Part shown: piece by piece, positions 34,986 through 57,807 of the stretch
Position numbering within the stretch: position 1 is the stretch's first letter
How the letters are laid out: every line of letters begins with the position of its first letter
Source of the DNA: Actinomycetes bacterium
GTDB lineage: Bacteria; Actinomycetota; Actinomycetes; Actinomycetales; Microbacteriaceae
Length of the DNA stretch: 64,000 nt
Assembly (NCBI GenBank): GCA_023428065.1
Contig: JAEYZI010000079.1
Location: 4,700 to 68,699 of the forward strand
Direction of reading: 5' to 3'
Notes under the pieces: model-generated
What the model was told of the DNA's origin: nothing
The model's input: the letters and a program-made list of their open reading frames with translations, nothing else
Databases searched by the model: none
Position numbers and translations under genes: made by a program

Positions 34986-36362
34986 TCAGCGCTTCCAGAC
35001 CGTCTTCACGTTCATGAACTCGCGGATGCCCTCCTTGGCGAGCTCCCGTCCGAATCCCGAGTCCTTGATGCCGCCGAACGGCAGCTCGGGGTAGGAGATC
35101 GTCATGCCGTTGACGAAGACGGCGCCCGCCTCCAGCTCGGAGACGAAGAACGCCTCCTCGGCGGCGTCGTTCGTCCAGACCGCCGACGACAGGCCGAAGG
35201 AGGTCTGGTTCGCGATCCGCACCGCCTCCTCCCGGTCGGCGACGCGGTAGAGCGACGCGACGGGACCGAAGGTCTCCTCGAACACGATGCGCATGTCGTC
35301 GGTGAGGTCGGCGAGCACGGTGGGCTGGATGAACCATCCCGGTCCGGGCACCGCGGCACCCCCCGCGAGCACGCGCGCCCCCTTCGCGACGGCGTCGTCG
35401 ACGAGCTCGAGGAGCTCGGCACGACCCGATTCCGTCGCGACGGGACCCACGTCGACGGTCTCGTCGAAGGGGTCGCCGACGCGGAGCTCGGCGAACGCCG
35501 CGGCGAAGCGGCGGGAGAACTCCTCGTACACGTCGTCGTGCACGAGGAAGCGCTTCGCGGCGATGCAGGACTGCCCGTTGTTCTGCACGCGCGCCCGCAC
35601 GGCGGTCGCGACCGCCTCGTCGAGATCGGCGGACGGCATCACCACGAAGGGGTCCGAGCCGCCGAGCTCGATGAGCGACTTCTTCACCTCGGATCCCGCG
35701 ATGGCCGCGACGGATCGCCCAGCCCCCTCCGAACCGGTGAGCGTCACGGCGGTCACGCGCGGGTCGCGGATGACCCCCTCCACCACGCGCGACCCGATGA
35801 GCAGCGTGCGCATGGATCCGCGGGGGAAGCCGGCCCGCTCGAAGAGCGTGTCGAGGTAGAGCGCCGTCTGCGGCACGTTCGATGCGTGCTTGAGCACACC
35901 CACGTTGCCCGCCATGAGCGCGGGGGCCGCGAAGCGGACGACCTGCCACAGCGGGTAGTTCCACGGCATGACGGCGAGCACCACGCCGAGCGGATGATAG
36001 GTCGTCGCGGCCGCGGAGGCTCCGACGCGCGACGGGTCCTCGAGCACCTCGTCGGCGAGGAAGGCCTCGGCGTGCTCGGCGTAGAAGCGCATGCCCTTGG
36101 CGCACTTGAGCACCTCCGCCCGGGACTGGGCGATCGGCTTGCCCATTTCGAGCGTCATGAGACGCGCGAGCTGCTCGACATCCGCCTCGACGAGCTCGGC
36201 CGCGGCGCGCATCCAGGCCGCGCGCGTCGCGAAATCGGTCGCGCGCAGCGCTTCGAAGGCCGCCTGCGCCTCGGCGAGACCGCGCTCGACGAGCTCGGGC
36301 GGGTAGGCCTCGTACTCCTGAACGGTCTCGCCGGTCGCCGGGTTGATGGTCGCGATCGCCAT
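34986..36362 (-). CDS. gabD: NAD(P)-dependent aldehyde dehydrogenase, succinate-semialdehyde dehydrogenase-like
   Basis: AAGGAG RBS before ATG MAIATINPATGE. ALDH motifs (LTLEMGKP, ELGGSDP, GQSCIAAKR, EETFGPV). Confidence 0.85.
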   Translation of the reverse strand: MAIATINPATGETVQEYEAYPPELVERGLAEAQAAFEALRATDFATRAAWMRAAAELVEADVEQLARLMTLEMGKPIAQSRAEVLKCAKGMRFYAEHAEAFLADEVLEDPSRVGASAAATTYHPLGVVLAVMPWNYPLWQVVRFAAPALMAGNVGVLKHASNVPQTALYLDTLFERAGFPRGSMRTLLIGSRVVEGVIRDPRVTAVTLTGSEGAGRSVAAIAGSEVKKSLIELGGSDPFVVMPSADLDEAVATAVRARVQNNGQSCIAAKRFLVHDDVYEEFSRRFAAAFAELRVGDPFDETVDVGPVATESGRAELLELVDDAVAKGARVLAGGAAVPGPGWFIQPTVLADLTDDMRIVFEETFGPVASLYRVADREEAVRIANQTSFGLSSAVWTNDAAEEAFFVSELEAGAVFVNGMTISYPELPFGGIKDSGFGRELAKEGIREFMNVKTVWKR

Positions 36363-36382
36363 GGGCGGGACTCCTTGTCGTG

Positions 36383-37813
36383 TCAGTCGAAGCCGAGCGA
36401 GCTCCGCCACGTCGCGTGAAGCGCGGCGTACTGCTCAGCTCGGGCGGGATCGGGGTGCACCGTCTCGCGGCGCTCGTGGGCTCCGAAGGCGCTCACGTCG
36501 GCCCCCGCGCCGCGCAGCGCGATGAGGGCAGCGCCGAGCAGGCTGACATCGGGCTGCTGGCACACCTCGATGGGACGACCGAGGACGTCGGCGCGCAGGC
36601 GGGCCAGCTCGGGTGAGCGGGCGACACCTCCTGCGAGCACGAGGGTCGCGGCTCCCGAGGGATCGAGCGCGTCGACGGCGTCGCGCACGATGTGCGCCGC
36701 GCCCTCGGCGGCGGCGAGCAGCACGTGCTCGCGGCCGTGGTCCTCGCGCTGCCCGATGACCATCCCCGTGCGCTCCGGCCGCCAGTGCGGGAAACGCGCT
36801 CCCGAGAGGCTCGGGTCGATGAGGAGGCCGTCGGCTCCGGGGCCGATCGCCTCGAGTCGCGCCGCGAGGAAGCTCGTCGCATCCGCGACGTCCGCGAAGC
36901 CGAGCAACACAGCCCAGCGTGCGAACGCGGCGCCCGTCGCGCCCGTGGGACCGCCCGCGCTGAAGCCGCCGAGCGGATAGGGGTTGATGACCGCTCCCGT
37001 CGGCGCATCGCCGGGCGACGCCACGAGACGCACGAGCACGTCGGTCGTGCCGGCGACGTCGGCGACGACGCCCTGCCGGTCGCGCAGCACGAGCGCAGCC
37101 CCGACCGATCCGTCGGTCGCGCCCGCGGCGACCGCGACGCCCCGGTTCAGACCGAGCTCGTCCGCGACCTCGGATGCCAGCTCCCCCACGATCTCGTCGG
37201 CAGCGAACTGCTCGGGAAGCTGCGCCGGGTCGAGGCCGACGAGCTCGAGCATGCGGGGCGACCAGGTCGAGTCGGCGATCGCGCTGAGGCCGGAATATGC
37301 GGCGGAGGTGCGGTCGGTCACCGCTGCCCGGGTGAACCGCCAGATGACGAAGTCCTTGGGCGTGAGCACGCGCGCTACCGAGGCGGCCGCCGCGGGATCG
37401 CTGCGGCGCAGGGCGAGGAGCGCGCTCCCTGCCCCACCCGCCGGCGTCGTCCGCCCGGCCGCGGCGAGCAGCTCGGCGAGCGAGTCGCCCGCGGCCGCCG
37501 TGAGCAGTTCGATGCCCGAGCTGTCGGCCCAGCCACGGCCTTCGCCGACGGGCGCACCGTCCGCGTCGACGAAGACCGTTCCCACATGACCCGCGATCGC
37601 GAGCGTCGAGATGCGTGCGCGTGCGCTCGCGGGGAGCGACACGACCGACTGCACCACGTCGAGCCACAGCCGCTCGGCGTCGAAGCGGGTTCCGGCGGAG
37701 GCGTCCGGACGCGTGACCCGGGTCGAGGCCACGATGACGCCTCCGCCGTCGACGGCGGCGCTCCGGACGGCCGACGTTCCGATGTCGATCGCCAGCACCA
37801 GCGCATCCGTCAT
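36383..37813 (-). CDS. FGGY-family carbohydrate kinase (kinase 1 of the island)
   Basis: Starts at the internal ATG (MTDALVLAIDIGTSAVRS, FGGY N-terminal motif). 476 aa. C-terminal GGVARSPE motif. Confidence 0.85.
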   Translation of the reverse strand: MTDALVLAIDIGTSAVRSAAVDGGGVIVASTRVTRPDASAGTRFDAERLWLDVVQSVVSLPASARARISTLAIAGHVGTVFVDADGAPVGEGRGWADSSGIELLTAAAGDSLAELLAAAGRTTPAGGAGSALLALRRSDPAAAASVARVLTPKDFVIWRFTRAAVTDRTSAAYSGLSAIADSTWSPRMLELVGLDPAQLPEQFAADEIVGELASEVADELGLNRGVAVAAGATDGSVGAALVLRDRQGVVADVAGTTDVLVRLVASPGDAPTGAVINPYPLGGFSAGGPTGATGAAFARWAVLLGFADVADATSFLAARLEAIGPGADGLLIDPSLSGARFPHWRPERTGMVIGQREDHGREHVLLAAAEGAAHIVRDAVDALDPSGAATLVLAGGVARSPELARLRADVLGRPIEVCQQPDVSLLGAALIALRGAGADVSAFGAHERRETVHPDPARAEQYAALHATWRSSLGFD

Positions 37814-37821
37814 GGGGATCC

Positions 37822-39522
37822 TTACTCCTCGCCGGCCTCGTAGGGCACGAACGCCGGGTAGGTCCAGGCGTTCACCGAGCGGTCGAGCGGCACGTCGAGG
37901 AGCACGGGGCTGTCGCCCCGGAGCGCTTCCCCGACCCGCGTGACGAGGGTATCGAGGTCGGGCACGACCTCGCCCGCGACGCCCATACCCCGGGCGACCA
38001 GGCCGAAGTCGACCTCGTGGAAGTCGACGCCGATCGTGCGCCCGTCGAAGTGCAGCTCCTGCTCCTGGCGGATGTTGCCGTAGCTCGAGTCGTTGAGCAC
38101 GACGATGCAGACGCGGCCGCCCACGCGGGCGAGCGTCTCCAGGTCGCCGGCGCTCATGCCGAGCGACCCGTCGCCGATGAGGGCGAGCACGGGACGCTCG
38201 GGGTCGATCGTCGCCGCGGCGATCGCCGCGGGCAGCGCGAAGCCCATGTTGCCGAAGCCGACAGGCTTGATGTAGGTGTTCGGCTCGGTGATCTCCCACA
38301 GGAAGGACCACACGCCGGGGTTGCCCGCGTCGGGGATGAGCAGCGTGTCGCTCGGGGCGACGTCGCGCAGCGCGCGCACGACGTCGGCCGGGGAGAGCGG
38401 CGCGGCGTGCGAGCCGGGCGCGACGGCGCTGAGCGCCCACCACGTGCGCTCCGCCGCCTGCAGCTCGGCGATCCAGTCGGCACGACGCGCGCGCTCCCCC
38501 TCGGCACGGTCGCCGACCGCCTGGGTGAGCGCCGAGGCGAACGACGAGATGTCGGAGACGATGCCGGTCGTCACCTCGCCGTAGTAACGGCCGATCATCG
38601 CGGGGTCGATGTCGACCTGGATGACCTCGGGGAGCTGACGGCGCCAGCGGGTCGTCGAGACGGCGTTGAGGCTGTTGCCGAGCGCGAGCACGAGGTCGGC
38701 GTCGCCGAGCACCCGGGTCGAGAGCTCGGTGCCCATGCGGCTGACCGCGCCGAAGACGAGCGGGTGCGTCGTCGGGACGGCCCCGATGCCGTTGAACGTC
38801 GTGACGACGGGGATGTTGAGCGCCTCGGCGAGGGCGAGCACGGCCTCGGAGGCGCGTCCGCGGTTACCGCCGTTGCCGAGCCAGATGACGGGGCGCTCGG
38901 CGGAGAGCAGGCGCTCCGCGGCATCCGCGACCGCGACGGCGTTGGGCGCGGGACGCTGTCCGACCCAGGCGCGCGCGGGGTGCACGGCGGGGACGGCGGG
39001 AGGGTTCTCGACGATGCCCTCGATCGTGTCGCGGGCGAAGTCGAGGTGCACGGGGCCGGGGTTGCCGGCCATCGCGTTCACGTAGGCCTCCTCCATGGCC
39101 TGCTTGATCGACGAGGCATGGGCGACGAGTCGGCTGTACTTGACGAGCGGCTTGAAGAGCTCGACGTGGTCGGCGTTCTGGGCGTCGTCCTTGTGGATGT
39201 TCTCGCCGTTGTTGTTGCACGTGATGACGAAGCCGGGGCTCGAGTCGCGGTACGCGCCGCCGACGCCCGTGATGAGGTTCGTGGCGCCGGGACCCGTCGT
39301 CGAGATGCACGCGGAGGGCTCACCCGTGAGCCGGCCGTATGCGTCCATCATGACGGCGGCGGCGTTCTCGTGCCGCGTGTGGACGAACTCGATGCCGGGC
39401 GTCGTGAGGATCGCGTCGGTGATGGCGAGCGTCTGGCCTCCGACGACGCCGAAGACACGGCGGACCCCGAGCGATACGAGCATGTCGACGACGAGCTGGC
39501 CGCCGGTCATGGGTGTGGTCAT
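37822..39522 (-). CDS. Thiamine-diphosphate enzyme of the acetolactate-synthase/oxalyl-CoA-decarboxylase superfamily (specificity unknown)
   Basis: N-terminal Pyr domain (GVVGGQTL, HENAAAVMMDAYGRLTG, TTGPGATNL). C-terminal ThDP motif GDGSLGMSAGDLETL...VVLNDSSYG. Confidence 0.85.
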   Translation of the reverse strand: MTTPMTGGQLVVDMLVSLGVRRVFGVVGGQTLAITDAILTTPGIEFVHTRHENAAAVMMDAYGRLTGEPSACISTTGPGATNLITGVGGAYRDSSPGFVITCNNNGENIHKDDAQNADHVELFKPLVKYSRLVAHASSIKQAMEEAYVNAMAGNPGPVHLDFARDTIEGIVENPPAVPAVHPARAWVGQRPAPNAVAVADAAERLLSAERPVIWLGNGGNRGRASEAVLALAEALNIPVVTTFNGIGAVPTTHPLVFGAVSRMGTELSTRVLGDADLVLALGNSLNAVSTTRWRRQLPEVIQVDIDPAMIGRYYGEVTTGIVSDISSFASALTQAVGDRAEGERARRADWIAELQAAERTWWALSAVAPGSHAAPLSPADVVRALRDVAPSDTLLIPDAGNPGVWSFLWEITEPNTYIKPVGFGNMGFALPAAIAAATIDPERPVLALIGDGSLGMSAGDLETLARVGGRVCIVVLNDSSYGNIRQEQELHFDGRTIGVDFHEVDFGLVARGMGVAGEVVPDLDTLVTRVGEALRGDSPVLLDVPLDRSVNAWTYPAFVPYEAGEE

Positions 39523-39622
39523 GGTGGGTCCTCCGTTAGTGCTGGGTAGTGGGTCGGTGGGCGCCGGATGCGGCCGCCCTGGCCCCGAGGTGGGCCGGTG
39601 TCTGTCGTGATGTCATCTAGTA

Positions 39623-39630
39623 GTCTAGAC
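39623..39630. promoter_or_regulatory. Island box A: ctagtaGTCTAGACcacttc (HutC/DasR-like operator)
   Basis: AT-rich box about 95 nt upstream of the ThDP enzyme start. Preceded on the minus strand by the hairpin TTCGGGCG-N6-CGCCCGAA (39645-39666) after the CoA-transferase beta gene. Confidence 0.55.
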
Positions 39631-39674
39631 CACTTCCGGGAAAGTTCGGGCGTTGTCACGCCCGAAGATCGAGG

Positions 39675-40472
39675 TCAGACGCGCAGCAGCGCGTTGGTGG
39701 GGTCGATCTCCTCGCGGATGGCGCGGAGAGCGGACTCCGGCACGCCGGGGGACTCGGTCAGCCCCTCGACGATGTCGGGCTCGAACGACATCCGCGAGAG
39801 GACGTCGTCGAGGGTCACCCCCGGGTAGAGCGACGTGAGCCGCATCCGCCCCGACGGCGTGAAGTCGAACAGGGCCATGTCGGTCACCACGAGCTCGGGG
39901 CCGCCGCCGTCGTAGCCCAGGGACTCGCGGGTGCGCACGCCATCGCCGTAGCCGAAGCTCGTCACGTAGTCGACCTTCTCCACGAAGACGCGCGACGACA
40001 GGTCGGCGACGATGATCGGACGCCGCACGAAAGCCAGATGCTCGGGCTGCGCGAGGCAGCCGACGAGCCGCACCGTGGGCGTCTCCCCCACGCCGATCCG
40101 CGTGATGTTGAGGTTGCCGTAGCGGTCGATCTGCGCCGCGGACTCGAAGCTCACGTCGAACTCCCCGCGCACGAGCATGTCGACCTTGGAGCCGACGTCG
40201 GCCGGCGCGTGCGCGCCCGGCCAACGCGTGATGGCGTCCTGCGTGAGACGCTCCGGCACCTCCGAGAGGTCGGGGCTCAGCAGGTTGCCCCAGTAGATGT
40301 CGAGATCCGGCGCGTGCCGCAGCTGGGCGAGACGCGCCGCGACGAGCGGCACACCCACCGCGAGGGTGAAGGCGCGACCCGAGGTCCCGACTCCGACGAA
40401 GACGAGTTCGCCGTCGCGCAGCACCTCGCTGATCGCGAAGGCCATGAGCTCGTTGCGCGTCGCCTCAGCCAC
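39675..40472 (-). CDS. Class I CoA-transferase beta-subunit-like protein (GctB/IpdB-like)
   Basis: GGAGGTG RBS then GTG. QIDRYGNLN and LVVTDMALFDF...IREEIDP segments typical of GctB/IpdB. No (S)ENG/ESG glutamate motif seen. Confidence 0.8.
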   Translation of the reverse strand: MAEATRNELMAFAISEVLRDGELVFVGVGTSGRAFTLAVGVPLVAARLAQLRHAPDLDIYWGNLLSPDLSEVPERLTQDAITRWPGAHAPADVGSKVDMLVRGEFDVSFESAAQIDRYGNLNITRIGVGETPTVRLVGCLAQPEHLAFVRRPIIVADLSSRVFVEKVDYVTSFGYGDGVRTRESLGYDGGGPELVVTDMALFDFTPSGRMRLTSLYPGVTLDDVLSRMSFEPDIVEGLTESPGVPESALRAIREEIDPTNALLRV

Positions 40473-41346
40473 GCTTCACCTCCAGGCTCGTGAGCCGCTC
40501 TCGTCCGACCGCGTCGAGGTACGCCTCGTGGTCGGCCACGTCGCGCACCGTCTCGGCCAGGTAGGCGTCGAAGCCCCCTTCGCGCTTGCCCGCCGCGACC
40601 CAGCGCTCGAGCTCGGCCTCGTCCTCGTCGTAGATCGTGTCGCAACTGCCCGGATAGGCGCCGAAGGGCGCCTCGCACACCGCCGCGACCTTCGTGTGCG
40701 GGATGTAGGTGAGGTTCGGGCGGCGCACGACCTCCGAGTGCGGGATGATCCGCTCGACCGACACCACGAGGCGCCGCGAGCCCGCGGCCATGATGAGGTC
40801 CTCGTCGTCGCTGTCGCGATGCGCCGGCCACACGATGTTGCCGAACTCGTCTCCCGCGTACGCGTGCAGGATCGTCGAATCGGCCCGCGCCGCCGCGGTC
40901 GCGTGCAGCTCGACACCCGTGTACGGGCACGTCACGCTGCGCACGTCGTCGCGCTCGCTCATCGAGGTGCCGCGGATGGGCTTCACCGGCAGGAACGGCA
41001 GGCCCATGGCCGCGGCGCGGAACTTCGCCGTCATGACCGACTCCGAGTGGTCGGTCACGGCCACCTCGCCGCGCTCGACCGCCCGGCGGAAGTTCGGCGC
41101 AGCGCCCTGCCACCACATCCCGACGTAGATGCCCTCCCAGGCGCGCACGCAGCCCGCTCCCACGAGGAGGTCGGTCGCGAGGCTCGACGCCCACGTCAGG
41201 AGCGTGAGGTCACGCACCTCCTGCCGGACGAGCTCGCGCGCGAGGGCGAGCGGCTGCCTGCGCAGCAGCGACCCTCCCACGGCGACGGTGTCGCCCGACG
41301 AGACGAGCGACGCCGCCTCCGCGACGGATGTCAGTTTGACGCGCAT
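40465..41346 (-). CDS. Class I CoA-transferase alpha-subunit-like protein (GctA/IpdA-like)
   Basis: SGDTVAVGG N-terminus, GLPFLPVKPIRG, VVSVERII: GctA/IpdA-like pattern. 8-nt overlap with the beta gene. Confidence 0.8.
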   Translation of the reverse strand: MRVKLTSVAEAASLVSSGDTVAVGGSLLRRQPLALARELVRQEVRDLTLLTWASSLATDLLVGAGCVRAWEGIYVGMWWQGAAPNFRRAVERGEVAVTDHSESVMTAKFRAAAMGLPFLPVKPIRGTSMSERDDVRSVTCPYTGVELHATAAARADSTILHAYAGDEFGNIVWPAHRDSDDEDLIMAAGSRRLVVSVERIIPHSEVVRRPNLTYIPHTKVAAVCEAPFGAYPGSCDTIYDEDEAELERWVAAGKREGGFDAYLAETVRDVADHEAYLDAVGRERLTSLEVKRG

Positions 41347-41353: not shown

Positions 41354-42082
41354 TCAGTGCTCGAGCACGCGGCGCAGGAACTGCTGCAGGCGCGGGTTGC
41401 TGGGCGACGTGAAGACCTGCTCCGCGCTTCCCTGCTCGCCGATCACGCCGCCGTCGAAGAACAGCACGCGGTCGGCGGTCTCCCGCGCGAAGCCCATCTC
41501 GTGGGTCACGACGAGCATCGTCATCCCCGCGGCGGCCAGCTCGCGCATGACCTTCGTGACCTCGCCCACGAGCTCCGGGTCGAGGGCGGAGGTAGCCTCG
41601 TCGAAGAGCATGACCTGCGGCTGCAGAGCGAGCGCGCGAGCGATCGCGACGCGCTGCTGCTGTCCACCGGAGAGCTGCTGCGGGTACGAGCCCGCCTTCT
41701 CGGCGAGCCCGACGCTCGTGAGCGCCGACATGGCGCGCTCGGTGGCGTCCGCCTTGCTGAGCTTCTTGACCTTGCGGAGCGCGAGGGTCGCGTTCTCGAG
41801 AGCCGTGAGGTGCGGGAAGAGGTTGAACTGCTGGAACACCATGCCCACGTGCTGGTGCACGAGGTGGGCGCTCTTGGGGTCGTGCACGGGGACCCCGTTC
41901 ACGACGATCTGCCCCGAGTCGATGGTCTCGAGACCGTTGATCGTGCGCAGAAGCGTGCTCTTCCCCGAGCCGCTGGCGCCGATGACGGCGATCACCTCGC
42001 CCTTCTCGACCTCGACGCTCACTCCCTTGAGCACCTCGTTGTCGCCGAAGCGCTTCCGAACGTCTGTGACTTGGACGATCAC
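41354..42082 (-). CDS. Amino-acid ABC transporter ATP-binding protein
   Basis: GAGGAG RBS then GTG overlapping the permease stop. Walker [29 protein letters not shown]. Confidence 0.9.
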
Positions 42083-43505: not shown

Positions 43506-43591
43506 GGTTGGGACCGATCTGAGGCGACGGGGCTCCGGGGCGCGGGTGGCGGATCCGGACGGATCCACCACCCGCGCTCAGGTTGGGACGG

Positions 43592-48777: not shown

Positions 48778-48826
48778 CGCCGCGCGTCCTCTCCGTCGCG
48801 CCATCGCGACACGAAGTCATGTAGAT

Positions 48827-48834: not shown

Positions 48835-48873
48835 TATTGGGCGATTCAGCCGGTCGCAAAGCAGAGGAGTCCC

Positions 48874-49941: not shown

Positions 49942-51413
49942 CGCAGCGCCCCCGCGGCGGCGCGCGCCGAACGGATCGCGAGCGCGACGCTCGTGATCGT
50001 GGGGTTGCAGGCCGTGGGCGTCGGGATCACACCGTTGCCGCCCACGTAGAGCCCCTCGACGCCCCACACCGCTCCCGTGGTGTCGCACACGCTCGTCTCG
50101 GGGTCGACCCCGAGACGCACGGTGCCCATGAAGTGGTACGACGCGCCGGCGGGAAGAACGCGCGGCTCGACGAGCGGGGTGCCGAGCACGCCGGCGATGC
50201 GCCGCGACATCTCGAGCAGCCGGTGCTCGGTCTGCAGATCGCGCGCCGTCGAGTGGTAGCTGATGCGCATGGCCGGCATGCCGTAGGCGTCGGTCTCGTC
50301 GTCGCTGAACTCGACGCGGTCCTCGGGCGTGATCTCCTTCGTGCCGAAGAGCACGACGCCCACGGTCGACCCGGCCCACGGCTCACCCGTCGGGATGAAG
50401 CCGATCGGCGAGGCGTCGAGCTGCATGACCTGGCAGTGGAAGGGGAAGCCGTCCTCTTCCGAGTAGGGGATCCACGTGACGCCGCCGCGGCCCGCGATGT
50501 CGCGGAACTCGTCGCTCAGCTGCACGAAGGTGCGCACGTCCGCGTGGTCGTTGAGGTAGCGGCCGAGCGCCCACGGCCGGATGCCGGACGCGTGGAGCAG
50601 CTGCGGGGTGCGGAAGCTGTCGCCCGCGACGTACACGAGGCCCGCCGAGATCGTCTCGGTCGCCCCCGTGCGCACGTCGCGCACCTCGACTCCCGAGACC
50701 CGGCCGTCGGTCAGCACGACCGAGGTGACGAGCGTCTCGGCGCGCAGCTCGACGGAGCCGTTCGCGAGCACGGGCGCCAGGATGCCGTCGGTGCCGGCCC
50801 ACTCGACCGTGCCGTCCTCCCGCGGGCGCGCCGCGAGGGGCATGGGCTGCACGGGACGATCGGTCGACCCGCGCGGGAACTCCCGAGCCAGGGCGTCGAT
50901 GATCGCCGCCGAGAGCGGGGCGTCGGCGAAGGTGCTCTGTGTGACGCCCAGGAGCGCGTCCGCCGCGTCGAGCACCTCGGTCATCTCGGCCTCGGGGATC
51001 TCGGCGATGATCTCCGTCCCGCCGGGCCGCGGGCACGCGCCCGTCCAGTGGGCGCCCATGCCGCCGACGTTCGTCGACATCGACGCGGCGGGGAGGCCCG
51101 TCGAGTCACTCGTCGTCATCCCGTCGCTCACGAGGAAGGTGCCGGGGCGCACCGCCTGAGGCGGGTGACCGGCGGCTTCCTCGCCCTCCGCGATGAAGTC
51201 GGTTCGCCGGGGGCCCTCGGACGCGGCCTGGGCGCGGGCGCGCTCGTCGGCGTCGACGATGCTGCGCACGTGCACCCCGGGAGGGTCCGCGATCACGGGG
51301 CCGGCCTCTACGATGAGGATGGTGGCGCGGGGGTCAGCCTCGGCGAGCGTTCTCGCGAACGCGCTGCCGACGGGCCCGCTGCCGACGACGACGACGTCGT
51401 AGACTTTGCTCAC
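49935..51413 (-). CDS. GMC-family FAD oxidoreductase, pyranose-oxidase/glycoside-3-oxidase-like
   Basis: GTG start. YDVVVVGSGPVGSAFARTLAE (P2Ox-like GxGxxG) and C-terminal GGNGVIPTPTACNPTITSVALA. 7-nt convergent overlap with the Ldh_2 stop. Confidence 0.8.
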   Translation of the reverse strand: MSKVYDVVVVGSGPVGSAFARTLAEADPRATILIVEAGPVIADPPGVHVRSIVDADERARAQAASEGPRRTDFIAEGEEAAGHPPQAVRPGTFLVSDGMTTSDSTGLPAASMSTNVGGMGAHWTGACPRPGGTEIIAEIPEAEMTEVLDAADALLGVTQSTFADAPLSAAIIDALAREFPRGSTDRPVQPMPLAARPREDGTVEWAGTDGILAPVLANGSVELRAETLVTSVVLTDGRVSGVEVRDVRTGATETISAGLVYVAGDSFRTPQLLHASGIRPWALGRYLNDHADVRTFVQLSDEFRDIAGRGGVTWIPYSEEDGFPFHCQVMQLDASPIGFIPTGEPWAGSTVGVVLFGTKEITPEDRVEFSDDETDAYGMPAMRISYHSTARDLQTEHRLLEMSRRIAGVLGTPLVEPRVLPAGASYHFMGTVRLGVDPETSVCDTTGAVWGVEGLYVGGNGVIPTPTACNPTITSVALAIRSARAAAGALRH

Positions 51414-51451
51414 CTTCGTTCCAATCTATTGAATGGGTGGGTAGGTCGGGT

Positions 51452-51459
51452 GTCTAGAC
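51452..51459. promoter_or_regulatory. Island box E: gggtGTCTAGACgactatataa
   Basis: In the divergent region between the GMC oxidoreductase (start 51413) and the HutC-type regulator (start 51518). A TATATAA tract is adjacent. Confidence 0.55.
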
Positions 51460-51517
51460 GACTATATAACCCTCGGCTGCCCTCCCCGGTAGCCACCACA
51501 CTCGACGAGGAGATCCC

Positions 51518-52231
51518 ATGGTGAACGCACGCCTGTACGAGGTGATCAGCCGCGACCTCACGGAGCAGATCACGTCCGGGCGCCTCAAGCCCGGCGAGCG
51601 ACTCGAGAGCGAGACCAATCTCGCCTCTCGCTACGGGGTCAGCCGCATGACCGTGCGACAGGCGCTCGGGCTACTCGAGTCCGACGAGCTCGTCGCGCGC
51701 CGCCACGGCGCGGGCACCTTCGTGTCGGAGAACCGCAGCGTCAAGCGCCGGGCGAACCGGCTCGCCCCGTTCAACGAGGAGTTGGGGCTCGACGCCGAGG
51801 ACATCAGCACGACGGTCCTCGAGCGCGAGGTGGGTCACCCGCCGGAGGACGTCAGCCAGGCGCTCTTCTCCACCGTCGGCCCGACGGCCGTGCACATCGT
51901 GCGCGTGCGGTCGTACCGCGGCGAGCCGATCGCCATCCAGGATTCGTGGATCCCCTACCTCCTCGCACCCCAGCTCGCCCACGGGCGACTCGTGCAGGGC
52001 TCCGTGTACAAGACCCTCGCCGCGCGCTCGGGCATCGAGATCGCGCGCGCCGAGCAGCAGGTGACGGCGACGCTCGCCGACGAGCACTCGGCGAAGCTCC
52101 TCCAGGTCGACGTGGGGAGCCCGCTCATCAGCACCCGCCGCGTCTCGCGCCTCGCATCGGGCGAGGTCGTCGAGGTCGCGTCGTGCCTCATGCGGCCGGA
52201 GTATCCGACGGTCTTCCGCCTCGAGCGCTAG
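51518..52231 (+). CDS. GntR-family transcriptional regulator, HutC subfamily (UTRA effector domain)
   Basis: GAGGAG RBS. HTH (ESETNLASRYGVSRMTVRQALGLLESDELV) plus a UTRA-like C-terminal domain. 237 aa. Confidence 0.9.
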   Translation: MVNARLYEVISRDLTEQITSGRLKPGERLESETNLASRYGVSRMTVRQALGLLESDELVARRHGAGTFVSENRSVKRRANRLAPFNEELGLDAEDISTTVLEREVGHPPEDVSQALFSTVGPTAVHIVRVRSYRGEPIAIQDSWIPYLLAPQLAHGRLVQGSVYKTLAARSGIEIARAEQQVTATLADEHSAKLLQVDVGSPLISTRRVSRLASGEVVEVASCLMRPEYPTVFRLER

Positions 52232-52290: not shown

Positions 52291-52310
52291 ATAGATGTCT
52301 GTACATCTAT
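52291..52310. promoter_or_regulatory. Island box F: ATAGATGT-ctgt-ACATCTAT (perfect 8+8 inverted repeat, core GTCTGTAC)
   Basis: Between a hairpin (CCGCGGCG-ag-CGCCGCGG) after the regulator gene and the CaiB-family gene start (52368). Confidence 0.6.
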
Positions 52311-52367: not shown

Positions 52368-53567
52368 ATGTCCGGAGACGCGGTCACCCAGCCCCTGAGC
52401 GGCGTCAAGGTGCTCGACCTCAGCCGCTTCATCGCGGGGCCGCTGTGCTGTCAGATGCTCGCCGACATGGGAGCCGAGGTGCTCAAGATCGAGCGCTCCT
52501 CCGGCGAGGACTCGCGCAAGCTCGCCCCGTTCTTCCAGGGCCACAGCATCTACACGATGCTCTACAGCCGGAACAAGTACGCCGGCACCCTCGACACCCG
52601 CCACCCGGAGGCGCTCGGGATCCTCGAGGACCTCATCCGGCGCTCCGACATCGTCGTCGAGAACTACCGTCCGGGCACCCTCGACGCGATGGGCATCCCC
52701 TTCTCGCGCATGCAGGAGCTCAACCCCGGCATCATCCTCGTCTCCATCTCCGGCTTCGGCCAGACCGGCCCGCTCGCGCAGCGCGCGCTGTTCGACGGCA
52801 TCGCCCAGGCCGCATCCGGTCTCATGAGCATGACGGGCGAGCCGGGCGGACGCCCCACGCTCACGGGCGCGTTCGTCGCGGACTACATCGCGGGGTACCA
52901 CGGCGCCATCGGCGCCCTGCTCGCCCTCATCCACAAGCGTGCGACGGGCGAGGGCCAGCACGTCGACGTCGCCTCCGTCGACGCGCTCTTCAGCGCGCTC
53001 GGCACCGCGACGAGCGCGTGGCCCATGCTCGGACAGAAGATGGAGCGCAACGGCTCCCGCGACCGCATGAGCGCCCCCGCCAACCTCTTCGAGGCGAGCG
53101 ACAGCTACATCTACCTGCACGCCGGCACCGACCCGCTGTTCCGGCGGCTCGCCCACGCGATGGGACGCCCCGAGCTGCTCGAGGACGAGCGCTTCTCCGC
53201 GGTCGCGCAGCGCATGGCGCACGTCGACGAGGTCGAGGCGATCGTGAGCGAGTGGCTCGGCGAGCTGACGGCCGAGGAGGCGGGTCGCCTCCTCGACGAG
53301 GCCGGCATCCCCTACAGCAAGGTCATGGGCGTCGACGAGGTCGCGTCCTCCGAGCAGATCCGCGCGCGCGAGATGCTCGTCGACATCGAGCACCCCGAGC
53401 TGGGCGTCGTGACGCTCCCGGGCGTGCCGATCAAGCTGAGCGCGGCCCCGGGATCCATCCGCAAGGCACCCCCGCTCGTGGGCGAGGACAGCGACTACAT
53501 CTACGGCGAGCTCCTCGGCTACGACGCGGACACCATCCAGGGTCTCCGCGACCGCGGCGTCATCTAG
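52368..53567 (+). CDS. CaiB/BaiF-family (class III) CoA-transferase
   Basis: GGAGGGA RBS. GVKVLDLSRFIAGPLCCQMLADMGAEVLKIE and ENYRPGTLD motifs. Confidence 0.9.
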   Translation: MSGDAVTQPLSGVKVLDLSRFIAGPLCCQMLADMGAEVLKIERSSGEDSRKLAPFFQGHSIYTMLYSRNKYAGTLDTRHPEALGILEDLIRRSDIVVENYRPGTLDAMGIPFSRMQELNPGIILVSISGFGQTGPLAQRALFDGIAQAASGLMSMTGEPGGRPTLTGAFVADYIAGYHGAIGALLALIHKRATGEGQHVDVASVDALFSALGTATSAWPMLGQKMERNGSRDRMSAPANLFEASDSYIYLHAGTDPLFRRLAHAMGRPELLEDERFSAVAQRMAHVDEVEAIVSEWLGELTAEEAGRLLDEAGIPYSKVMGVDEVASSEQIRAREMLVDIEHPELGVVTLPGVPIKLSAAPGSIRKAPPLVGEDSDYIYGELLGYDADTIQGLRDRGVI

Positions 53568-53588: not shown

Positions 53589-55034
53589 ATGAACGACGCC
53601 TTCCTCGGCCTCGACGTCGGCACGTCCGGACTCAAGATCCTCGTGATCGACACCGACGGCGGCGTGCTCGCGCGCACCTCGGCGGGCTACCCGACCTCCT
53701 ACCCCGCGCCCGGGCGCGCCGAGCAGGATCCCGAGTCGTGGATCGACGCGCTCGCGGATGCCCTGAGCCGCGTCGATGCGGACGTGCGCGCCCGCATCCG
53801 GGGCGTCGCCGCCGTCGGCCACGTGCCGAGCCTCGTGCTCGTCGACGCCGACGGAAGAGCCGTGCGACCGTCGATCATCTGGCAGGACAATCGCGCCGAG
53901 CGCGAGGCGCAGGCGCTCGGCGCCCGCTTCGGCGACGTCGACGCCGAACTGGGAACGGCCCTGCCCTGGGCGGCGTCGCAACTGCTGCCGAAGCTCTCCT
54001 GGGTGGCCGCCCACGAGCCCGAGGCGGTGACCCGCACGAGCGCGGCACTGCAGCCCAAGGACTACGTCAACCGCTTCCTCACCTCGATCACGGCGACCGA
54101 CCCGTGGTCGTCGAAGGGCATCTGCGACGTGACGGAGGGCGCGCCCGCCGCGCGTCTGCTCGCGGGCGCCGGCTGGTCCTCCGACGTATGTCCTCCGACG
54201 CATGCGCCGTGGGCGGAGCTCGGGCGTGTGACGCCCGCGGCCGCCGAACGTCTCGGCATCCCCGCCGGCATCGTCGTCGCGACCGGATGGTCGGACGCCC
54301 TGGGTGCCGTGCTCGCCGTCGGCGCGTTCGACGAGCCGCGCTCGTTCGTGCTCACCGGAACCTCCAACATCGTCGGAGCGACCCGCACGGACGTCGCGAC
54401 GGCACAGGGCCTGTACGCCGTCCCGGCGGGACCCTCGGCCCCGCTCCCCATGCTCTACGGACCGACCCAGTCGGGCGGCGAGGCGCTCACCTGGGCCGCC
54501 CGCATCCTCGACGTCGAGGTCGGCGAGGTCATCCGCCTCGCGACGGAAGCGGCCACGACCGACCGCCCGACCTTCGTGCCGTACCTGCGCGGCGAGCGCG
54601 CACCGCTTTGGAACCCCGCGGCCCGCGGCCTGCTCGTCGGCCTGTCGGCCGACCAGGGGCGCGCCGAGTTCGCCCGCGCCGTCGTCGACGGCGTCGCCTC
54701 GAGCGCCCGTCACGTGCTCGAGCTCGCCACGGGCGGCGACGGCGCCGACCAGCCGGTCGAGGTCGGAGGGGTCGGCGTCGACGACCCGCGCTGGGCCGCG
54801 ATGTGGGCATCCGCCCTCCGCCGCCCGCTGCGCATCCACTCCGAGCCGAACCTCTCCGCGCTCGGAGCCGCCCTCCTCGCGGCCGGGGCGTGCGGGCTCA
54901 AGGGCGCCGAGCTCGCGCGGCTGCGCCCGCAGCCCACCGAATACCACCCGGATGCCGCCGACGCGGACGACACCGGATTCCGCGATTATCTCGACGCGAG
55001 TCACCTCGCCGACGAATGGAGCCGACGTGACTGA
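53589..55034 (+). CDS. FGGY-family carbohydrate kinase (kinase 2 of the island)
   Basis: FLGLDVGTSGLK N-terminus, IIWQDNRA, FVPYLRGERAP: xylulokinase-like pattern. Confidence 0.85.
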   Translation: MNDAFLGLDVGTSGLKILVIDTDGGVLARTSAGYPTSYPAPGRAEQDPESWIDALADALSRVDADVRARIRGVAAVGHVPSLVLVDADGRAVRPSIIWQDNRAEREAQALGARFGDVDAELGTALPWAASQLLPKLSWVAAHEPEAVTRTSAALQPKDYVNRFLTSITATDPWSSKGICDVTEGAPAARLLAGAGWSSDVCPPTHAPWAELGRVTPAAAERLGIPAGIVVATGWSDALGAVLAVGAFDEPRSFVLTGTSNIVGATRTDVATAQGLYAVPAGPSAPLPMLYGPTQSGGEALTWAARILDVEVGEVIRLATEAATTDRPTFVPYLRGERAPLWNPAARGLLVGLSADQGRAEFARAVVDGVASSARHVLELATGGDGADQPVEVGGVGVDDPRWAAMWASALRRPLRIHSEPNLSALGAALLAAGACGLKGAELARLRPQPTEYHPDAADADDTGFRDYLDASHLADEWSRRD

Positions 55035-55647
55035 ACTCGCCACCGACCCCGTCATCGTCGTCGTCCGCCTGGACGACCCCGACGCCGCCACGACCGCCAT
55101 CACGGGCCTCCTGCGGGGAGGCGCGCGCAGCATCGAGGTCACGATGACCGTGCCCTCGGCGCTCGGCATCATCGAGAGCCTGCGCGGCCAGGACGCCATG
55201 ATCGGCGCCGGCACCGTGCTCACCCGCCAGGACGCCCTCGCCGCCGTCGCGGCGGGCGCGCGCTACCTCGTCGCGCCCGACACCAATCCCGAGGTGCTCG
55301 CCGTCGGCGCCGAGGCCGGCGTGCCCGTCGTCCCGGGCGCCCTGACGCCCACCGAGATCCGCCAGGCCGCTGGGCTGGGCGCCGCCGCCGTCAAGGTGTT
55401 CCCGGTCGACGCGCTCGGCGGCCCCGAGTACATCCGCTCCCTCCGCGGCCCGCTCCCCGACGTGCCGTTCGTCGTCTCCGGCGGCGTCACGACCCCGCAG
55501 GCCGCCCAGTACTTCGCCGCGGGCGTGCGGTCGGTGTGCATGGGACGCGAGTTCCTCGACGCCGCCGAGATCGCCGCCCGCGACATCGACGCCATCGCCG
55601 CACGCGCCGCGCGTGTGCTCTCCGCGGTCGCCCCGGCCGCGGCCTGA
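55027..55647 (+). CDS. eda: KDPG/KHG aldolase family protein
   Basis: GTG overlapping the kinase 3' end. PVIVVVRLDD, IEVTMTVP, GAGTVL, VKVFP (Schiff-base Lys context). Confidence 0.85.
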   Translation: MTELATDPVIVVVRLDDPDAATTAITGLLRGGARSIEVTMTVPSALGIIESLRGQDAMIGAGTVLTRQDALAAVAAGARYLVAPDTNPEVLAVGAEAGVPVVPGALTPTEIRQAAGLGAAAVKVFPVDALGGPEYIRSLRGPLPDVPFVVSGGVTTPQAAQYFAAGVRSVCMGREFLDAAEIAARDIDAIAARAARVLSAVAPAAA

Positions 55648-55693: not shown

Positions 55694-57016
55694 ATGGCCA
55701 GAATCGGCAGCCATCGGATCACCGACATCCGGTTCCCCACGTCGCTCGACGCCTCCGGTTCGGACGCGGTCAACGTCGACCCCGACCACTCCGCCGCCTA
55801 CCTCGAGCTGACGCCCGACGACCCGAGCTGGCCCTCCGGCTACGCCTACGTCTTCACCCAGGGCCGCGGCAACGACCTCGCCTGCCACACCCTCGAGGTC
55901 ATGGTCGGGCTGCTGCCCGACTGGCCGCTCGAGGAGATGCTCGACCGCCTCGGCGAGGTGTCGCGCCTGCTCGTCGACGACTCGCAGCTGCGCTGGCTCG
56001 GGCCCGAGAAGGGGCTCACCCACCAGGCCGCGGGCGCCGTCGTCAACGCGCTCTGGGACATCAAGGCGCGCCGCGCGGGCGTGCCCCTGTGGCGCCTGCT
56101 CGTCGACATGACGCCCGAGGAGATCGTCTCGGTCGTCGACTTCTCGCACCTGCGCGACGCCATCACGGAGGCCGAGGCGCTCGATATCCTCCGCGCCGGC
56201 CAGGAGGGCAAGGAGGAGCGCATCGCGCACCTGCGCAGCGACGGCTTCCCGGCGTACACGACCGGCCCGGGGTGGCTCGGCTTCAGCGACGAGCGGATGC
56301 TGGGCCTCGTCCGGCAGGCGGTCGACGACGGCTTCACGCTCATCAAGATGAAGGTCGCCGGCAACCTCGAGGACGACAAGCGCCGCCTCGGGCTCGCGCG
56401 CGAGGCCGTCGGCCCCGACATCCGGCTCGCGATCGACGCGAACCAGCGCTGGGACGTCGACGAGGCGATCGACTGGATCCGCGAGCTCGTCGACTACCAG
56501 CTGTGGTGGGTCGAGGAGCCGACCGCGCCCGACGACATCCTCGGCCACGCGAAGATCCGCAAGGCGATCGCACCGACCAAGGTCGCGACGGGCGAGGCGA
56601 TGGCCAACCGCATCATGGTCAAGCAGTTCCTGCAGGCCGAGGCGCTCGACATCCTGCAGATCGAGTCGAGCCACTTCGCGGGCGTCAACGAGAACCTCGC
56701 GAACCTGCTGCTCGCGACGAAGTTCGGCGTGCCCGTGATCCCGCACGCGGGCGGCGTGGGACTCTGCGAGCTCGGGCAGCACTACGTCTACTTCGACTAC
56801 GCCGTGCTCGCCCGCACGCTCGACGACCGCGGGCTCGAGTACATCGACCACCTGCACGAGCACTTCGTCGCTCCGGTCGACGTGACCCGCGGACGCTACC
56901 GTCTGCCCGACACGCCGGGCACGGGAGCCGAGATCCGACCCGAGTCGGTGGCGCGGTGGACGTTCCCCGACGGGCCCGGCTGGACCGAGCTCCGCGAGAA
57001 GGGACTCGTGCCGTGA
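55694..57016 (+). CDS. Enolase-superfamily acid-sugar dehydratase, L-fuconate-dehydratase-like
   Basis: ITDIRFPTSLDASGSDAVNVDPDHSAAY N-terminus typical of the FucD group. KMKV, AIDANQRWD, WWVEEP metal-ligand motifs. Confidence 0.85.
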   Translation: MARIGSHRITDIRFPTSLDASGSDAVNVDPDHSAAYLELTPDDPSWPSGYAYVFTQGRGNDLACHTLEVMVGLLPDWPLEEMLDRLGEVSRLLVDDSQLRWLGPEKGLTHQAAGAVVNALWDIKARRAGVPLWRLLVDMTPEEIVSVVDFSHLRDAITEAEALDILRAGQEGKEERIAHLRSDGFPAYTTGPGWLGFSDERMLGLVRQAVDDGFTLIKMKVAGNLEDDKRRLGLAREAVGPDIRLAIDANQRWDVDEAIDWIRELVDYQLWWVEEPTAPDDILGHAKIRKAIAPTKVATGEAMANRIMVKQFLQAEALDILQIESSHFAGVNENLANLLLATKFGVPVIPHAGGVGLCELGQHYVYFDYAVLARTLDDRGLEYIDHLHEHFVAPVDVTRGRYRLPDTPGTGAEIRPESVARWTFPDGPGWTELREKGLVP

Positions 57017-57807
57017 CCGAGCGGCGCGACGCCGTCTCGTTCGACCTCTCCGCGCGCAGCGTCATCGTGACGGGCGGGGCGAGCGGGATCGGCGCGACCC
57101 TCGCCGAGGCGCTCCTCGCCGCGGGCGCCCGCGTGAGCGTGTGGGGCCGCGACCAGGCGCGGCTCGACGCGTTCGTCGAGCGGATGGCCGGCAGGTACGC
57201 GCACGACCCGCTCCCGAAGTCGGTCGACGTGACCGACGCCGCGAGCATCGACGCGGCCCTCGCGGAGGTCGTCGAGGAGTGGGGCCGTGTCGACGGTCTC
57301 GTGAACGGCGCCGGCACGATGAAGGTCGGCGACTCGGTCGACTTCGCCGAGGCGGACTTCCGGTCGATCGTCGACATCCACCTCGTGGGCGCGTTCCTCT
57401 GCTCGCAGCGTGTGGCGCGCGTCATGCGCGAGTCGGGCGGCGGCAGCATCCTCAACCTCGGCTCGATGGCCACCTTCGTCGGCCAGCCTCGCCGCGCCGC
57501 CTATTCGGCCGCCAAGACCGGCATCGCCGGCCTCACGAAGACGCTCGCCGTCGAGTGGGGTCCGGATGCCATCCGCGTCAACGCGATCGCGCCCGGCTAC
57601 ATCGCGACGGGCATGGCGATGGAGAACGTGCGCCTCGGCGTGCTGCCGCTCGACAAGGTGCTCTCGCGCACGCCCCTGCGCCGCATGGGCGAGCCCGAGG
57701 AGCTCGTGCCGCTCTCGCTCTACCTGCTGAGCGACGTCGCGGCCTTCGTGACCGGAACCATCATCCCGGTCGACGGCGGCTGGCTCGCCAACGGCTACGT
57801 GGAGTAG
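57013..57807 (+). CDS. Classical SDR oxidoreductase
   Basis: GTGA overlap with the dehydratase stop. TGGASGIG and YSAAK motifs. Pairing with a FucD-like gene resembles 2-keto-3-deoxy-L-fuconate dehydrogenase. Confidence 0.85.
   Translation: MTERRDAVSFDLSARSVIVTGGASGIGATLAEALLAAGARVSVWGRDQARLDAFVERMAGRYAHDPLPKSVDVTDAASIDAALAEVVEEWGRVDGLVNGAGTMKVGDSVDFAEADFRSIVDIHLVGAFLCSQRVARVMRESGGGSILNLGSMATFVGQPRRAAYSAAKTGIAGLTKTLAVEWGPDAIRVNAIAPGYIATGMAMENVRLGVLPLDKVLSRTPLRRMGEPEELVPLSLYLLSDVAAFVTGTIIPVDGGWLANGYVE

Follow-up and report, generated by a model that had tools for sequence, protein, structure and literature searches.

A cluster of 21 intact catabolic genes (g1–g21, Table 1) lies at positions 34986-57807, between a gene for an HtrA-like protease and ssrA, in the 64-kb stretch of DNA analysed here (the window; contig JAEYZI010000079.1 of a Microbacteriaceae bacterium). 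We propose that it forms one regulon built around a coenzyme A (CoA)-dependent hydrolytic core that would act on a sugar-derived acid, a general scheme to which we give a probability of about 0.5. The centre of this core is a trio consisting of an IpdA-like and an IpdB-like subunit (g5 and g4) and a family III CoA-transferase (g17). Together with a thiamine diphosphate (ThDP) enzyme and a triose/tetrulose kinase, the trio may constitute an undescribed, multi-phylum and often plasmid-borne module, whose IpdAB-type hydrolase would cleave a 3-oxoacyl-CoA made from a sugar acid or cyclitol carboxylate; we put this narrower proposal forward tentatively. Four lines of observation are presented first, namely gene content, operator pattern, synteny and the pattern of active-site residues.

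The genes g4 and g5 are adjacent, overlap by 8 nt (40465-40472) and encode proteins of the class I (GctAB-like) CoA-transferase fold, each with a Pfam CoA_trans domain and with GctA/B, IpdA/B and AibA/B as relatives in the Protein Data Bank (PDB). Of these three, only GctAB is a genuine transferase; AibAB decarboxylates its substrate, and IpdAB hydrolyses a ring. The catalytic glutamate of class I transferases (GctB Glu54) is missing from g4, in which ‘DIY-WGN’ is aligned to GctB ‘IIVESG’, and it is also lost in nine g4 homologues, belonging to both paralogue types. In g5, E102 aligns with Glu105 of IpdA in the PDB alignments (query ‘HSESVM’, wild-type IpdA ‘MDEGMV’, E105A chain ‘MDAGMV’); this position is occupied by Gln in GctA and Gly in AibA, and E102 is invariant in 14 homologues, down to 47% identity. 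Because the β-subunit lacks the catalytic glutamate and the α-subunit retains the equivalent of Glu105, we consider the pair IpdAB-like: on these residues it passes as a predicted IpdAB-type hydrolase and fails as a transferase. It resembles IpdAB of M. tuberculosis and Rhodococcus jostii (PDB 6co6, 6con) in its overlapping gene pair, its fold and both active-site features, and its substrate, too, would presumably be a CoA thioester supplied by a different enzyme. It departs from IpdAB in that phmmer scores are lower to IpdAB than to GctAB (g5, 89-97 bits to IpdA and 131 to GctA; g4, 66-68 bits to IpdB and 101 to GctB), the genes ipdC, ipdF, echA20, fadD3 and fadE are absent, and the partners are instead a family III transferase, a ThDP enzyme, sugar kinases, GntR or LacI regulators and sugar- or amino-acid-type importers. 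Neither the window’s cluster nor the 31 loci described below were found to contain steroid-ring genes (KstR2 context).

These loci, each of at least 9 kb and including the window’s own contig, come from a neighbourhood survey seeded with g5 and scored with the 21 proteins and eight extra queries. They belong to Actinobacteria and to Alpha-, Beta- and Gammaproteobacteria, and the core ranges over Microbacteriaceae, Mycobacterium, Rhizobiales, Azospirillum, Cupriavidus and Pantoea. Homologues of g4 and g5 are present in all 31, and a g17 homologue stands beside them in 29 of the 30 other loci, the exception being a locus cut at its contig end. No other gene of the cluster is so constant; a ThDP enzyme and a small-ketose kinase (FGGY or DhaKL) usually accompany the trio. 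Actinobacterial loci (g5 at least 65% identical) add a g3-type ThDP enzyme, a g2-type FGGY kinase, a GntR-UTRA regulator, a family-3 ATP-binding cassette (ABC) importer and, often, a MaoC-like gene. The ThDP enzyme, 68-85% identical in six of them, is often the best-conserved gene; homologues of g2 (41-60% identical) and g16 (38-56%) each occur in eight of the nine other actinobacterial loci, and the importer (g6-g9) is linked to the core in six of ten. A preliminary account made from the DNA of the window (the sequence-only reading) had remarked that the importer, the GctAB-like pair, the ThDP enzyme and the CaiB-type transferase were foreign to known routes; they prove to be the conserved heart of the actinobacterial version. 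Proteobacterial loci (g5 46-55%) differ in the subfamily of their ThDP enzyme (NCBIfam PRK06112 type, ~930 bits, only ~30% identical to g3) and carry DhaK/DhaL, LacI regulators and another, paralogous IpdAB-like pair. Their importers beside the core are of the CUT2, MFS or TRAP type, and shikimate-dehydrogenase-like and MaoC genes are often present. A compact, 12-gene version is found on the conjugative plasmid p5 of Azospirillum argentinense (NZ_CP032326.1, 77-90 kb), where a CUT2 ABC importer, LacI, two IpdAB-like pairs, CaiB, a PRK06112-type ThDP enzyme and DhaKL form a module bordered on one side by two downstream IS3 transposases.

Beside the core of four actinobacterial loci (L085, L099, L101 and L102), a MaoC-like gene (~334 aa) was seen without a PrpD-like one. 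The window shows the reverse, a PrpD-like gene and no MaoC-like one, and so, over the length of their short contigs, do L081 and an Acetobacteraceae metagenome-assembled genome (MAG; L002). This apparent mutual exclusion may reflect non-orthologous replacement of a (de)hydratase step.

Synteny ties the core to the acid-sugar genes of the cluster. The gene order from g7 to g20 is kept in a metagenomic relative (L081) whose g11 is 88% identical, and a Mycobacterium locus (L093, g5 73% identical) has counterparts of 16 of the 21 genes (51-83% identical), or 17 with a 49% match to a short-chain dehydrogenase/reductase (SDR), in one divergon. Its first arm reads SDR, TIM barrel, FucD, Eda, FGGY, CaiB, and its second family-3 substrate-binding protein (SBP), permease, permease, ATPase, IpdA-like, IpdB-like, GMC, ThDP, FGGY, GntR-UTRA. 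The CaiB-type gene is the first of the FucD operon in the window, L081 and Mycobacterium, and in the last it is divergent from the ABC/IpdAB-like operon. On the strength of this synteny in L081 and Mycobacterium, we conclude that the FucD/Eda operon travels with the genes for the CoA enzymes, the ThDP enzyme and the importer. A similar gene set, with a MaoC-like gene in addition, is present in Paramicrobacterium (L085). FucD, Eda and the second FGGY kinase (g18) are confined, within the 31 loci, to the window, its 88% relative and Mycobacterium. Homologues of g12 are 66-73% identical in Paramicrobacterium and Mycobacterium; g13 is 77-78% identical in L085 and L097, besides the window’s close relatives; and homologues of g15 (51-52%) lie inside or beside the core operon in L085, L092 and L093, the GMC gene being absent from most core-bearing loci. 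Only the window and L081 have g14, and g1 orthologues occur only on the window’s own contig, the aldehyde dehydrogenases (ALDHs) of other loci being just 30-41% identical. The co-conservation on which the sequence-only reading depended therefore holds in part: it stands for the order kept in the 88% relative and for the 16-17 genes in Mycobacterium, and it fails for g1, g10, g11 and g14, which are limited to the closest relatives. The cluster is not one indivisible pathway; lineage-specific additions to the core are FucD, Eda and g18, the GMC enzyme g15, g12, g14, g10, g11 and g1 and, partly, g13.

A second survey was seeded with g11 and covered 80 GTDB loci, all at most 53% identical to g11; the whole cluster was found in none of these loci. 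Homologues of g11 at 69-70% identity already have a different neighbourhood, and a g10 homologue is paired with those at 69% and 52%. Whereas the g5 seed worked, g11 is a poor seed for a survey of this kind. In Salipiger marinus DSM 26424 (L008, NZ_FNEJ01000004.1) the g11 family (49% identical) occurs in a LacI-controlled TRAP cluster of acid-sugar type, with two Gfo/Idh/MocA genes, an IlvD/Edd dehydratase, a GMC gene, an ALDH and an enolase-superfamily gene, and this type of cluster recurs in Tagaea, Telmatospirillum and Rhodospirillales MAGs.

A HutC/DasR-type box, GT[C/A]TAGAC followed by N-ACTA, was identified in all six promoter-bearing intergenic gaps of the cluster, and no full match was found elsewhere in the 64-kb window. 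Exact TAGACNACTA occurs four times in the 64 kb, each time in an intergenic gap of the cluster. When one mismatch is allowed, TAGACNACTA gives nine matches against a shuffle mean of 1.1, and two more cluster boxes are added; exact GTCTAKAC has four sites in the 64 kb, all of them cluster boxes (shuffle mean 1.35 strand matches). The motif is likewise present in the equivalent promoters of five actinobacterial relatives, all with a GntR/UTRA gene, and its sites there include the divergent CaiB–SBP promoter of Mycobacterium, Paramicrobacterium chengjingii and the metagenomic locus L092. Both hallmarks of a HutC-subfamily regulon are present, that is, a regulator with a GntR helix-turn-helix (HTH) and a UTRA domain, and palindromic predicted operators of the GT-N-TA-N-AC type in the target promoters. 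Because the operator is shared and the synteny conserved, we read the cluster as a single predicted regulon. A lack of co-regulation would have counted against the sequence-only reading; with the predicted operator shared by every promoter region, the 21 genes appear to be co-regulated and not a chance row of operons.

Two local arrangements deserve mention. A 152-nt gap at 39523-39674, with a box of its own, splits the minus-strand string into an SBP-to-IpdB unit and a ThDP-FGGY-ALDH unit, and the same position holds the GMC gene in Mycobacterium and Paramicrobacterium (plus MaoC in Paramicrobacterium). The genes g14 (plus strand) and g15 (minus strand) are convergent and overlap by 7 nt at 49934-49941, so that there is no room for a terminator between them; they are also tail-to-tail in L081 (8131-8134). 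A promoter and terminator scan of the window’s high-GC DNA gave nothing usable.

The families of the individual enzymes are known. Only g1 passes an equivalog cut-off (NCBIfam PRK09406, NADP-dependent succinate-semialdehyde dehydrogenase (SSADH), 749.9 vs 730), and g19 passes a subfamily cut-off (TIGR01182, 164.9 vs 156). A full-text literature search, outside which most subscription papers lay, turned up no publication that describes the trio together with a ThDP enzyme and a kinase. These results agree with the earlier view that no single described pathway accounts for the gene set, and that of a composite or undescribed pathway, whose substrate is not deducible from sequence, survives. With the XylB model (cut-off 380), the FGGY kinases g2 and g18, which share 28% identity, score 172.6 and 256.8, respectively. 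The ThDP enzyme g3 is intact, reaches 352.9 with its best NCBIfam model vs a cut-off of 509, and is not an acetolactate synthase (ALS) equivalog; in the PDB it is closer to ALS-like proteins (200-252 bits; BbmA best at 252, ALS ~200-225) than to oxalyl-CoA decarboxylase (Oxc) and 2-hydroxyacyl-CoA lyase (HACL), at ~150-164 bits. PDB matches of g11 are distant (CAD 53 bits, IDS epimerase 42 bits); its homologues reside in acid-sugar clusters, and it is 24% identical to the window’s own prpD. The latter is a canonical-looking second prpD upstream in the window, at 26604-28118 (within 24.5-28.3 kb). The closest PDB entries to g15 are 7qf8 (PsG3Ox, 431 bits), 7dve (CarA, 421) and 8qve (389), and those to g20 are 1yey/2hxt (FucD, 516-517 bits over residues 26-459) and human ENOSF1 (456 bits); by full-length similarity, g20 is a predicted FucD-type enzyme.

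A parallel with the yiaK-lyxK-sgbU genes of 2,3-diketo-L-gulonate utilisation, drawn from the sequence alone, had to be given up. In the PDB, g14 matches YiaK at 80 bits vs 167 for 1vbi (Thermus type-2 malate/lactate dehydrogenase), with 131 for 1wtj (imino-acid reductase), and it scores 109.5 with the NCBIfam model of 3-dehydro-L-gulonate 2-dehydrogenase vs a cut-off of 316. The isomerase g12 is Hyi/OtnI-like (Hyi 148.8 and OtnI 118.9, both below cut-offs; PDB 3ngf and YgbM) and has no match to the SgbU/UlaE models, and the cluster has no SgbH/SgbE-type gene, neither an orotidine-monophosphate-decarboxylase-like nor a class II aldolase-like one.

Four described systems offer closer comparisons. 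With the FucD-dependent acid-sugar routes (non-phosphorylative or mixed L-fucose–L-galactonate pathways; FucD of Xanthomonas campestris) the cluster shares g20, the lactonase, SDRs, aldolase and ALDH; unlike them, it has no FAH-family diketo-hydrolase and no DHDPS-type aldolase, its Eda-type aldolase is preceded by an FGGY rather than a PfkB kinase, and the operon opens with a CoA-transferase. The C4-C6 sugar-acid funnel (LtnD/OtnI/OtnK/OtnC; Ltn3D of Paracoccus litorisediminis, PMC12994016) is similar in its composite cluster, in an isomerase like g12, in the likely central 3-oxo acid and in dihydroxyacetone with DhaK as a possible outlet. It differs in that a DUF1537 kinase (OtnK) and a class II aldolase-type decarboxylase (OtnC) are absent here, and the 3-oxo acid here would be a CoA ester split by a hydrolase, for which we found no precedent. 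The glycoside 3-oxidases (PsG3Ox; CarA with CarBC) share the G3Ox clade of g15, which in our cluster lies within or beside the CoA/ThDP operon and has no CarB/CarC partner: no CarC-like small open reading frame (ORF) is among the genes called in the cluster, and its sole TIM barrel is g12. The CarABC system was rejected for want of these partners. Finally, formyl-CoA transferase (Frc)/Oxc and HACL systems also couple a family III CoA-transferase genetically to a ThDP enzyme, and g17 scores highest with the NCBIfam model of formyl-CoA transferase (265 vs a cut-off of 442); unlike those proteins, g17 falls far below the equivalog cut-offs (255-265 vs 442-504), and an IpdAB-like pair has no role in those systems. 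The Frc/Oxc oxalate system was rejected on the score of g17 and because g3 has neither Oxc nor HACL among its best matches. The itaconate/2-hydroxyparaconate cluster was also rejected, no Ccl-type lyase being present here.

From these observations we infer the substrate and all of the chemical steps as follows. Our best guess for the substrate is a polyhydroxylated carboxylate, an aldonic acid or its lactone. The 21 genes would form one regulon of the HutC-type repressor g16, in about nine transcription units, and a hydroxylated carboxylate would enter through the polar-amino-acid-type (PAAT) ABC importer g6-g9. A 3-oxo acid could then arise in two ways: in Actinobacteria, the glycoside-3-oxidase-like g15 might oxidise a 3-hydroxyl of the ring or chain, or a 2-dehydrogenase (g14 or an SDR) might act together with g12 as a 2-oxo/3-oxo isomerase. 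The family III transferase g17 would load CoA onto the carboxylate, and g5/g4 would hydrolyse a C–C bond of the 3-oxoacyl-CoA in a retro-Claisen reaction, as IpdAB does in steroid ring opening, to give a shorter acid and a short acyl-CoA, the latter handing its CoA back via g17. Acting on one of the fragments, the ThDP enzyme g3 and a small-sugar kinase (g2, or DhaKL in Proteobacteria) would yield a phosphorylated triose or tetrulose; that FGGY and DhaKL replace each other suggests that the kinase acts on a small ketose or glyceraldehyde. FucD (g20), the kinase g18, Eda (g19) and the SDR g21 may provide a parallel 2-keto-3-deoxy outlet, and the lactonase g10, PrpD-like g11, extended SDR g13 and SSADH-like g1 would be additions of this lineage only. 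Work on the sugar-acid funnel has established that oxidation of the 3-hydroxyl of C4-C6 sugar acids yields 3-oxo acids, that dihydroxyacetone is formed from 3-oxo-L-threonate, and that composite ‘metabolic funnel’ clusters exist (PMC12994016). The specific 3-oxo-aldonyl-CoA chemistry remains doubtful in our estimation, well below the standing of the general scheme.

Several points weigh against this scheme. Five genes of the cluster lack conservation outside close relatives, and g16 is the presumed repressor at the six predicted operators by virtue of where the motifs lie. Since they belong to different subfamilies, the actinobacterial and proteobacterial ThDP enzymes may do different jobs. 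The minimal Azospirillum module has no dehydrogenase, so its 3-oxo substrate must come from elsewhere or its chemistry must differ. The known substrate of IpdAB is a carbocyclic enone-CoA and not a sugar acid, and acid sugars are not usually imported with a family-3 SBP. Cyclitol carboxylates are hinted at by the shikimate-dehydrogenase-like genes of several proteobacterial loci. Routes drawn on paper from quinate, shikimate, 2,3-diketogulonate, hamamelonate and 3-oxo-hexonates were each set aside, none fitting all of the conserved genes without an ad hoc step.

The main rival takes up this hint and makes the substrate a hydroxylated carbocyclic acid, a cyclitol carboxylate similar to quinate or shikimate, which would be activated by the CaiB-type enzyme, hydrated or oxidised by MaoC-like, shikimate-dehydrogenase-like or GMC enzymes, and opened by the IpdAB-like pair as in the steroid C/D-ring or benzoyl-CoA-type pathways. 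IpdAB, the sole characterised hydrolase of the fold, opens a cyclohexenone-carboxyl-CoA ring and has the matching residue pattern; shikimate-dehydrogenase-family genes adjoin the core in Cupriavidus, Shinella and several metagenomic loci; MaoC-like hydratases recur across core loci; and the GMC clade oxidises hydroxyls on six-membered rings. However, the window’s cluster has neither a shikimate-dehydrogenase-like nor a MaoC-like gene, it carries the acid-sugar enzymes FucD, Eda, lactonase and OtnI-like isomerase, and we were unable to draw a route from quinate or shikimate to a Dak or FGGY substrate with the genes present. We consider a carbocyclic substrate unlikely, if the best placed of the alternatives.

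Oxidative deglycosylation, in which a G3Ox-like oxidase would produce a 3-keto-glycoside and a TIM barrel would eliminate the aglycone, the sugar then leaving through FucD/Eda and an acidic aglycone through the CoA core, seems to us quite unlikely. It would explain the strong similarity of g15 to C-glycoside 3-oxidases (421-431 bits) and the retention of the xylose-isomerase-like TIM barrel g12 alongside g15 in Mycobacterium and Paramicrobacterium, and a glycosylated amino or organic acid is a conceivable cargo for an amino-acid-type importer. Yet g12 is not CarB/DgpB-like, the CarC-type small subunit is missing, most core loci do without a GMC gene, and the cluster contains no glycoside hydrolase and no CUT1 sugar importer.

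A third possibility is that unrelated operons simply lie side by side, one of the L-fuconate type, one that combines CoA enzymes with an amino-acid importer, and one for a glycoside oxidase. The modules do recombine freely beyond ~30% divergence, as the quite different surroundings of g11 homologues illustrate, the whole set recurs in none of the 80 loci around them, and FucD, Eda and the second FGGY kinase are absent from most core loci. Against this stand the single operator motif in each promoter gap, with its full match nowhere else in the window, the recurrence of both regulator and motif in relatives, and the position of CaiB at the head of the FucD operon in three loci, in one of them divergent from the ABC/IpdAB-like operon; we regard mere adjacency as improbable. 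A sugar–amino-acid conjugate (an Amadori compound or opine), also entertained in the sequence-only reading, is very improbable: family-3 SBP systems of Agrobacterium do import opines and deoxyfructosyl-glutamine, and the Ldh_2 family of g14 does include imino-acid reductases, but Pfam found no domain for C–N chemistry (pyridoxal-phosphate (PLP) enzyme, FAD-dependent amine or fructosyl-amine oxidase, amidase or deglycase) in any of the 21 genes, and proteobacterial core loci use CUT2 sugar-type ABC, MFS or TRAP importers.

The genes themselves were delimited as follows. The G+C content of the 64-kb window is ~71%, and for this reason raw ORF lists are full of spurious frames; reading frames were chosen by GC content at the third codon position (GC3), and families were then assigned with Pfam and NCBIfam. 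All of the gene families listed beforehand for 34986-57807 were recovered in this way. Among the longest raw ORFs, three had a wrong frame or strand, and codon-position GC served to locate g2, g14 and g21. The start of g11 was refined to 45600 (protein of 455 aa), and that of g20 is most likely the ATG at 55694, behind GAAGGAAG. The proposed borders, a GC-rich hairpin on the left and ssrA from 57840 on the right, were confirmed. The term ‘island’, applied to the cluster earlier, does not hold in a mobile sense: GC within the cluster (0.67-0.75) is similar to that of the rest of the window, Pfam found no integrase or transposase domain in any cluster gene, and no repeat of the ssrA 3′ end longer than 14 nt was found near 34.9 kb, at the distal border. 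A mobile genomic island targeted to the transfer-messenger RNA (tmRNA) gene was rejected for lack of an integrase, an att repeat and a GC shift. An 18-nt perfect inverted repeat (57820-57837 / 58246-58263) flanks the tmRNA gene on both sides; it could act as a stem for processing of the precursor or as a paired terminator/promoter element. The window sequence was found in soil metagenomes, and a 34-kb Joint Genome Institute (JGI) contig (L095) is identical to part of it. The three contigs from the sole metatranscriptome with the window sequence measure 151-206 nt, lie on g6, g9 and g10, and are too small to inform.

Table 1. Genes, borders and predicted operator boxes of the cluster (positions in the window).
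Feature	Position	Strand	Evidence, location or sequence
g1 NADP-type SSADH-like ALDH, accessory	34986-36410	-	Pfam Aldedh, E 2e-142
g2 FGGY kinase 1, xylulokinase-like below cut-off	36383-37813	-	Pfam FGGY_N/C
g3 ThDP enzyme, ALS/POX superfamily	37822-39522	-	three TPP domains (Pfam)
g4 IpdB-like β-subunit (CoA_trans)	39675-40472	-	Pfam; PDB matches GctB, IpdB, AibB
g5 IpdA-like α-subunit (CoA_trans)	40465-41346	-	Pfam; PDB alignments
g6 ABC ATPase	41354-~42100	-	Pfam; NCBIfam GlnQ/EhuA-like, below cut-off
g7 ABC permease	42079-42753	-	Pfam
g8 ABC permease	42750-43571	-	Pfam
g9 family-3 SBP (SBP_bac_3)	43592-44464	-	Pfam; NCBIfam LAO-like, below cut-off
g10 SMP-30/gluconolactonase-family lactonase, accessory	44625-45485	-	Pfam SGL, E 3e-42
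g11 MmgE/PrpD-family protein, distinct subfamily, accessory	45600-46967	+	Pfam
g12 Hyi/OtnI-like TIM-barrel isomerase	46996-47772	+	Pfam AP_endonuc_2
g13 extended SDR (epimerase/dehydratase family)	47797-48804	-	Pfam Epimerase
g14 Ldh_2 oxidoreductase, accessory	48874-49941	+	Pfam Ldh_2, E 3e-90
g15 GMC flavoenzyme, bacterial glycoside-3-oxidase/pyranose-oxidase clade	49935-51413	-	PDB matches
g16 GntR/HutC-subfamily regulator (GntR HTH + UTRA)	51518-52231	+	Pfam
g17 family III (CaiB/Frc-type) CoA-transferase	52368-53567	+	Pfam CoA_transf_3, E 2e-116
g18 FGGY kinase 2	53589-55034	+	Pfam
g19 KDPG/KHG aldolase (Eda)	55027-55647	+	Pfam Aldolase
g20 FucD-family (L-fuconate dehydratase) acid-sugar dehydratase	55694-57016	+	PDB matches
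g21 classical SDR	57013-57807	+	Pfam adh_short_C2, E 2e-60
tmRNA (ssrA)	57840-58210	-	right border of cluster
GC-rich hairpin	34895-34917	.	downstream of g1; left border of cluster
predicted operator box A	39617-39634		upstream of g3; CTAGTAGTCTAGACCACT
predicted operator box B	44538-44552		upstream of g9; CATATAGACGACTAG
predicted operator box C	45507-45521		g10/g11 divergent promoter; TGTATAGACTACTAG
predicted operator box D	48822-48838		g13/g14 divergent promoter; TAGATGTCTAGACTATT
predicted operator box E	51450-51466		g15/g16 divergent promoter; GTGTCTAGACGACTATA
predicted operator box F	52291-52310		upstream of g17; ATAGATGTCTGTACATCTAT; degenerate core inside near-perfect palindrome

In conclusion, each enzyme family in the cluster is known, and the novelty is a CoA-dependent catabolic cluster with a predicted IpdAB-type hydrolase outside steroid degradation. 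To our knowledge, members of the GctAB fold that are not transferases are known for two reactions only, steroid ring opening by IpdAB and a step of isovalerate biosynthesis by AibAB; if the fold had a third role, in the breakdown of carbohydrate-like compounds, sugar-acid metabolism would gain a mode of C–C cleavage new to it. Carriers in culture include Paramicrobacterium chengjingii (CP061169, 3.326-3.347 Mb), Azospirillum argentinense MTCC4035 (plasmid p5), Shinella sumterensis or S. oryzae, and Pantoea. Compact versions of the module in cultured strains and on plasmids make the question directly testable, and the predicted operator and the family-3 SBP are handles for identifying the inducer and the substrate. 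If our proposal is true, the core would carry out a hydrolytic, CoA-recycling ‘β-oxidation’ of carbohydrates, and would assign a function to widespread genes now mis-annotated as ‘acetolactate synthase’, ‘CoA-transferase’ and ‘MmgE/PrpD’.

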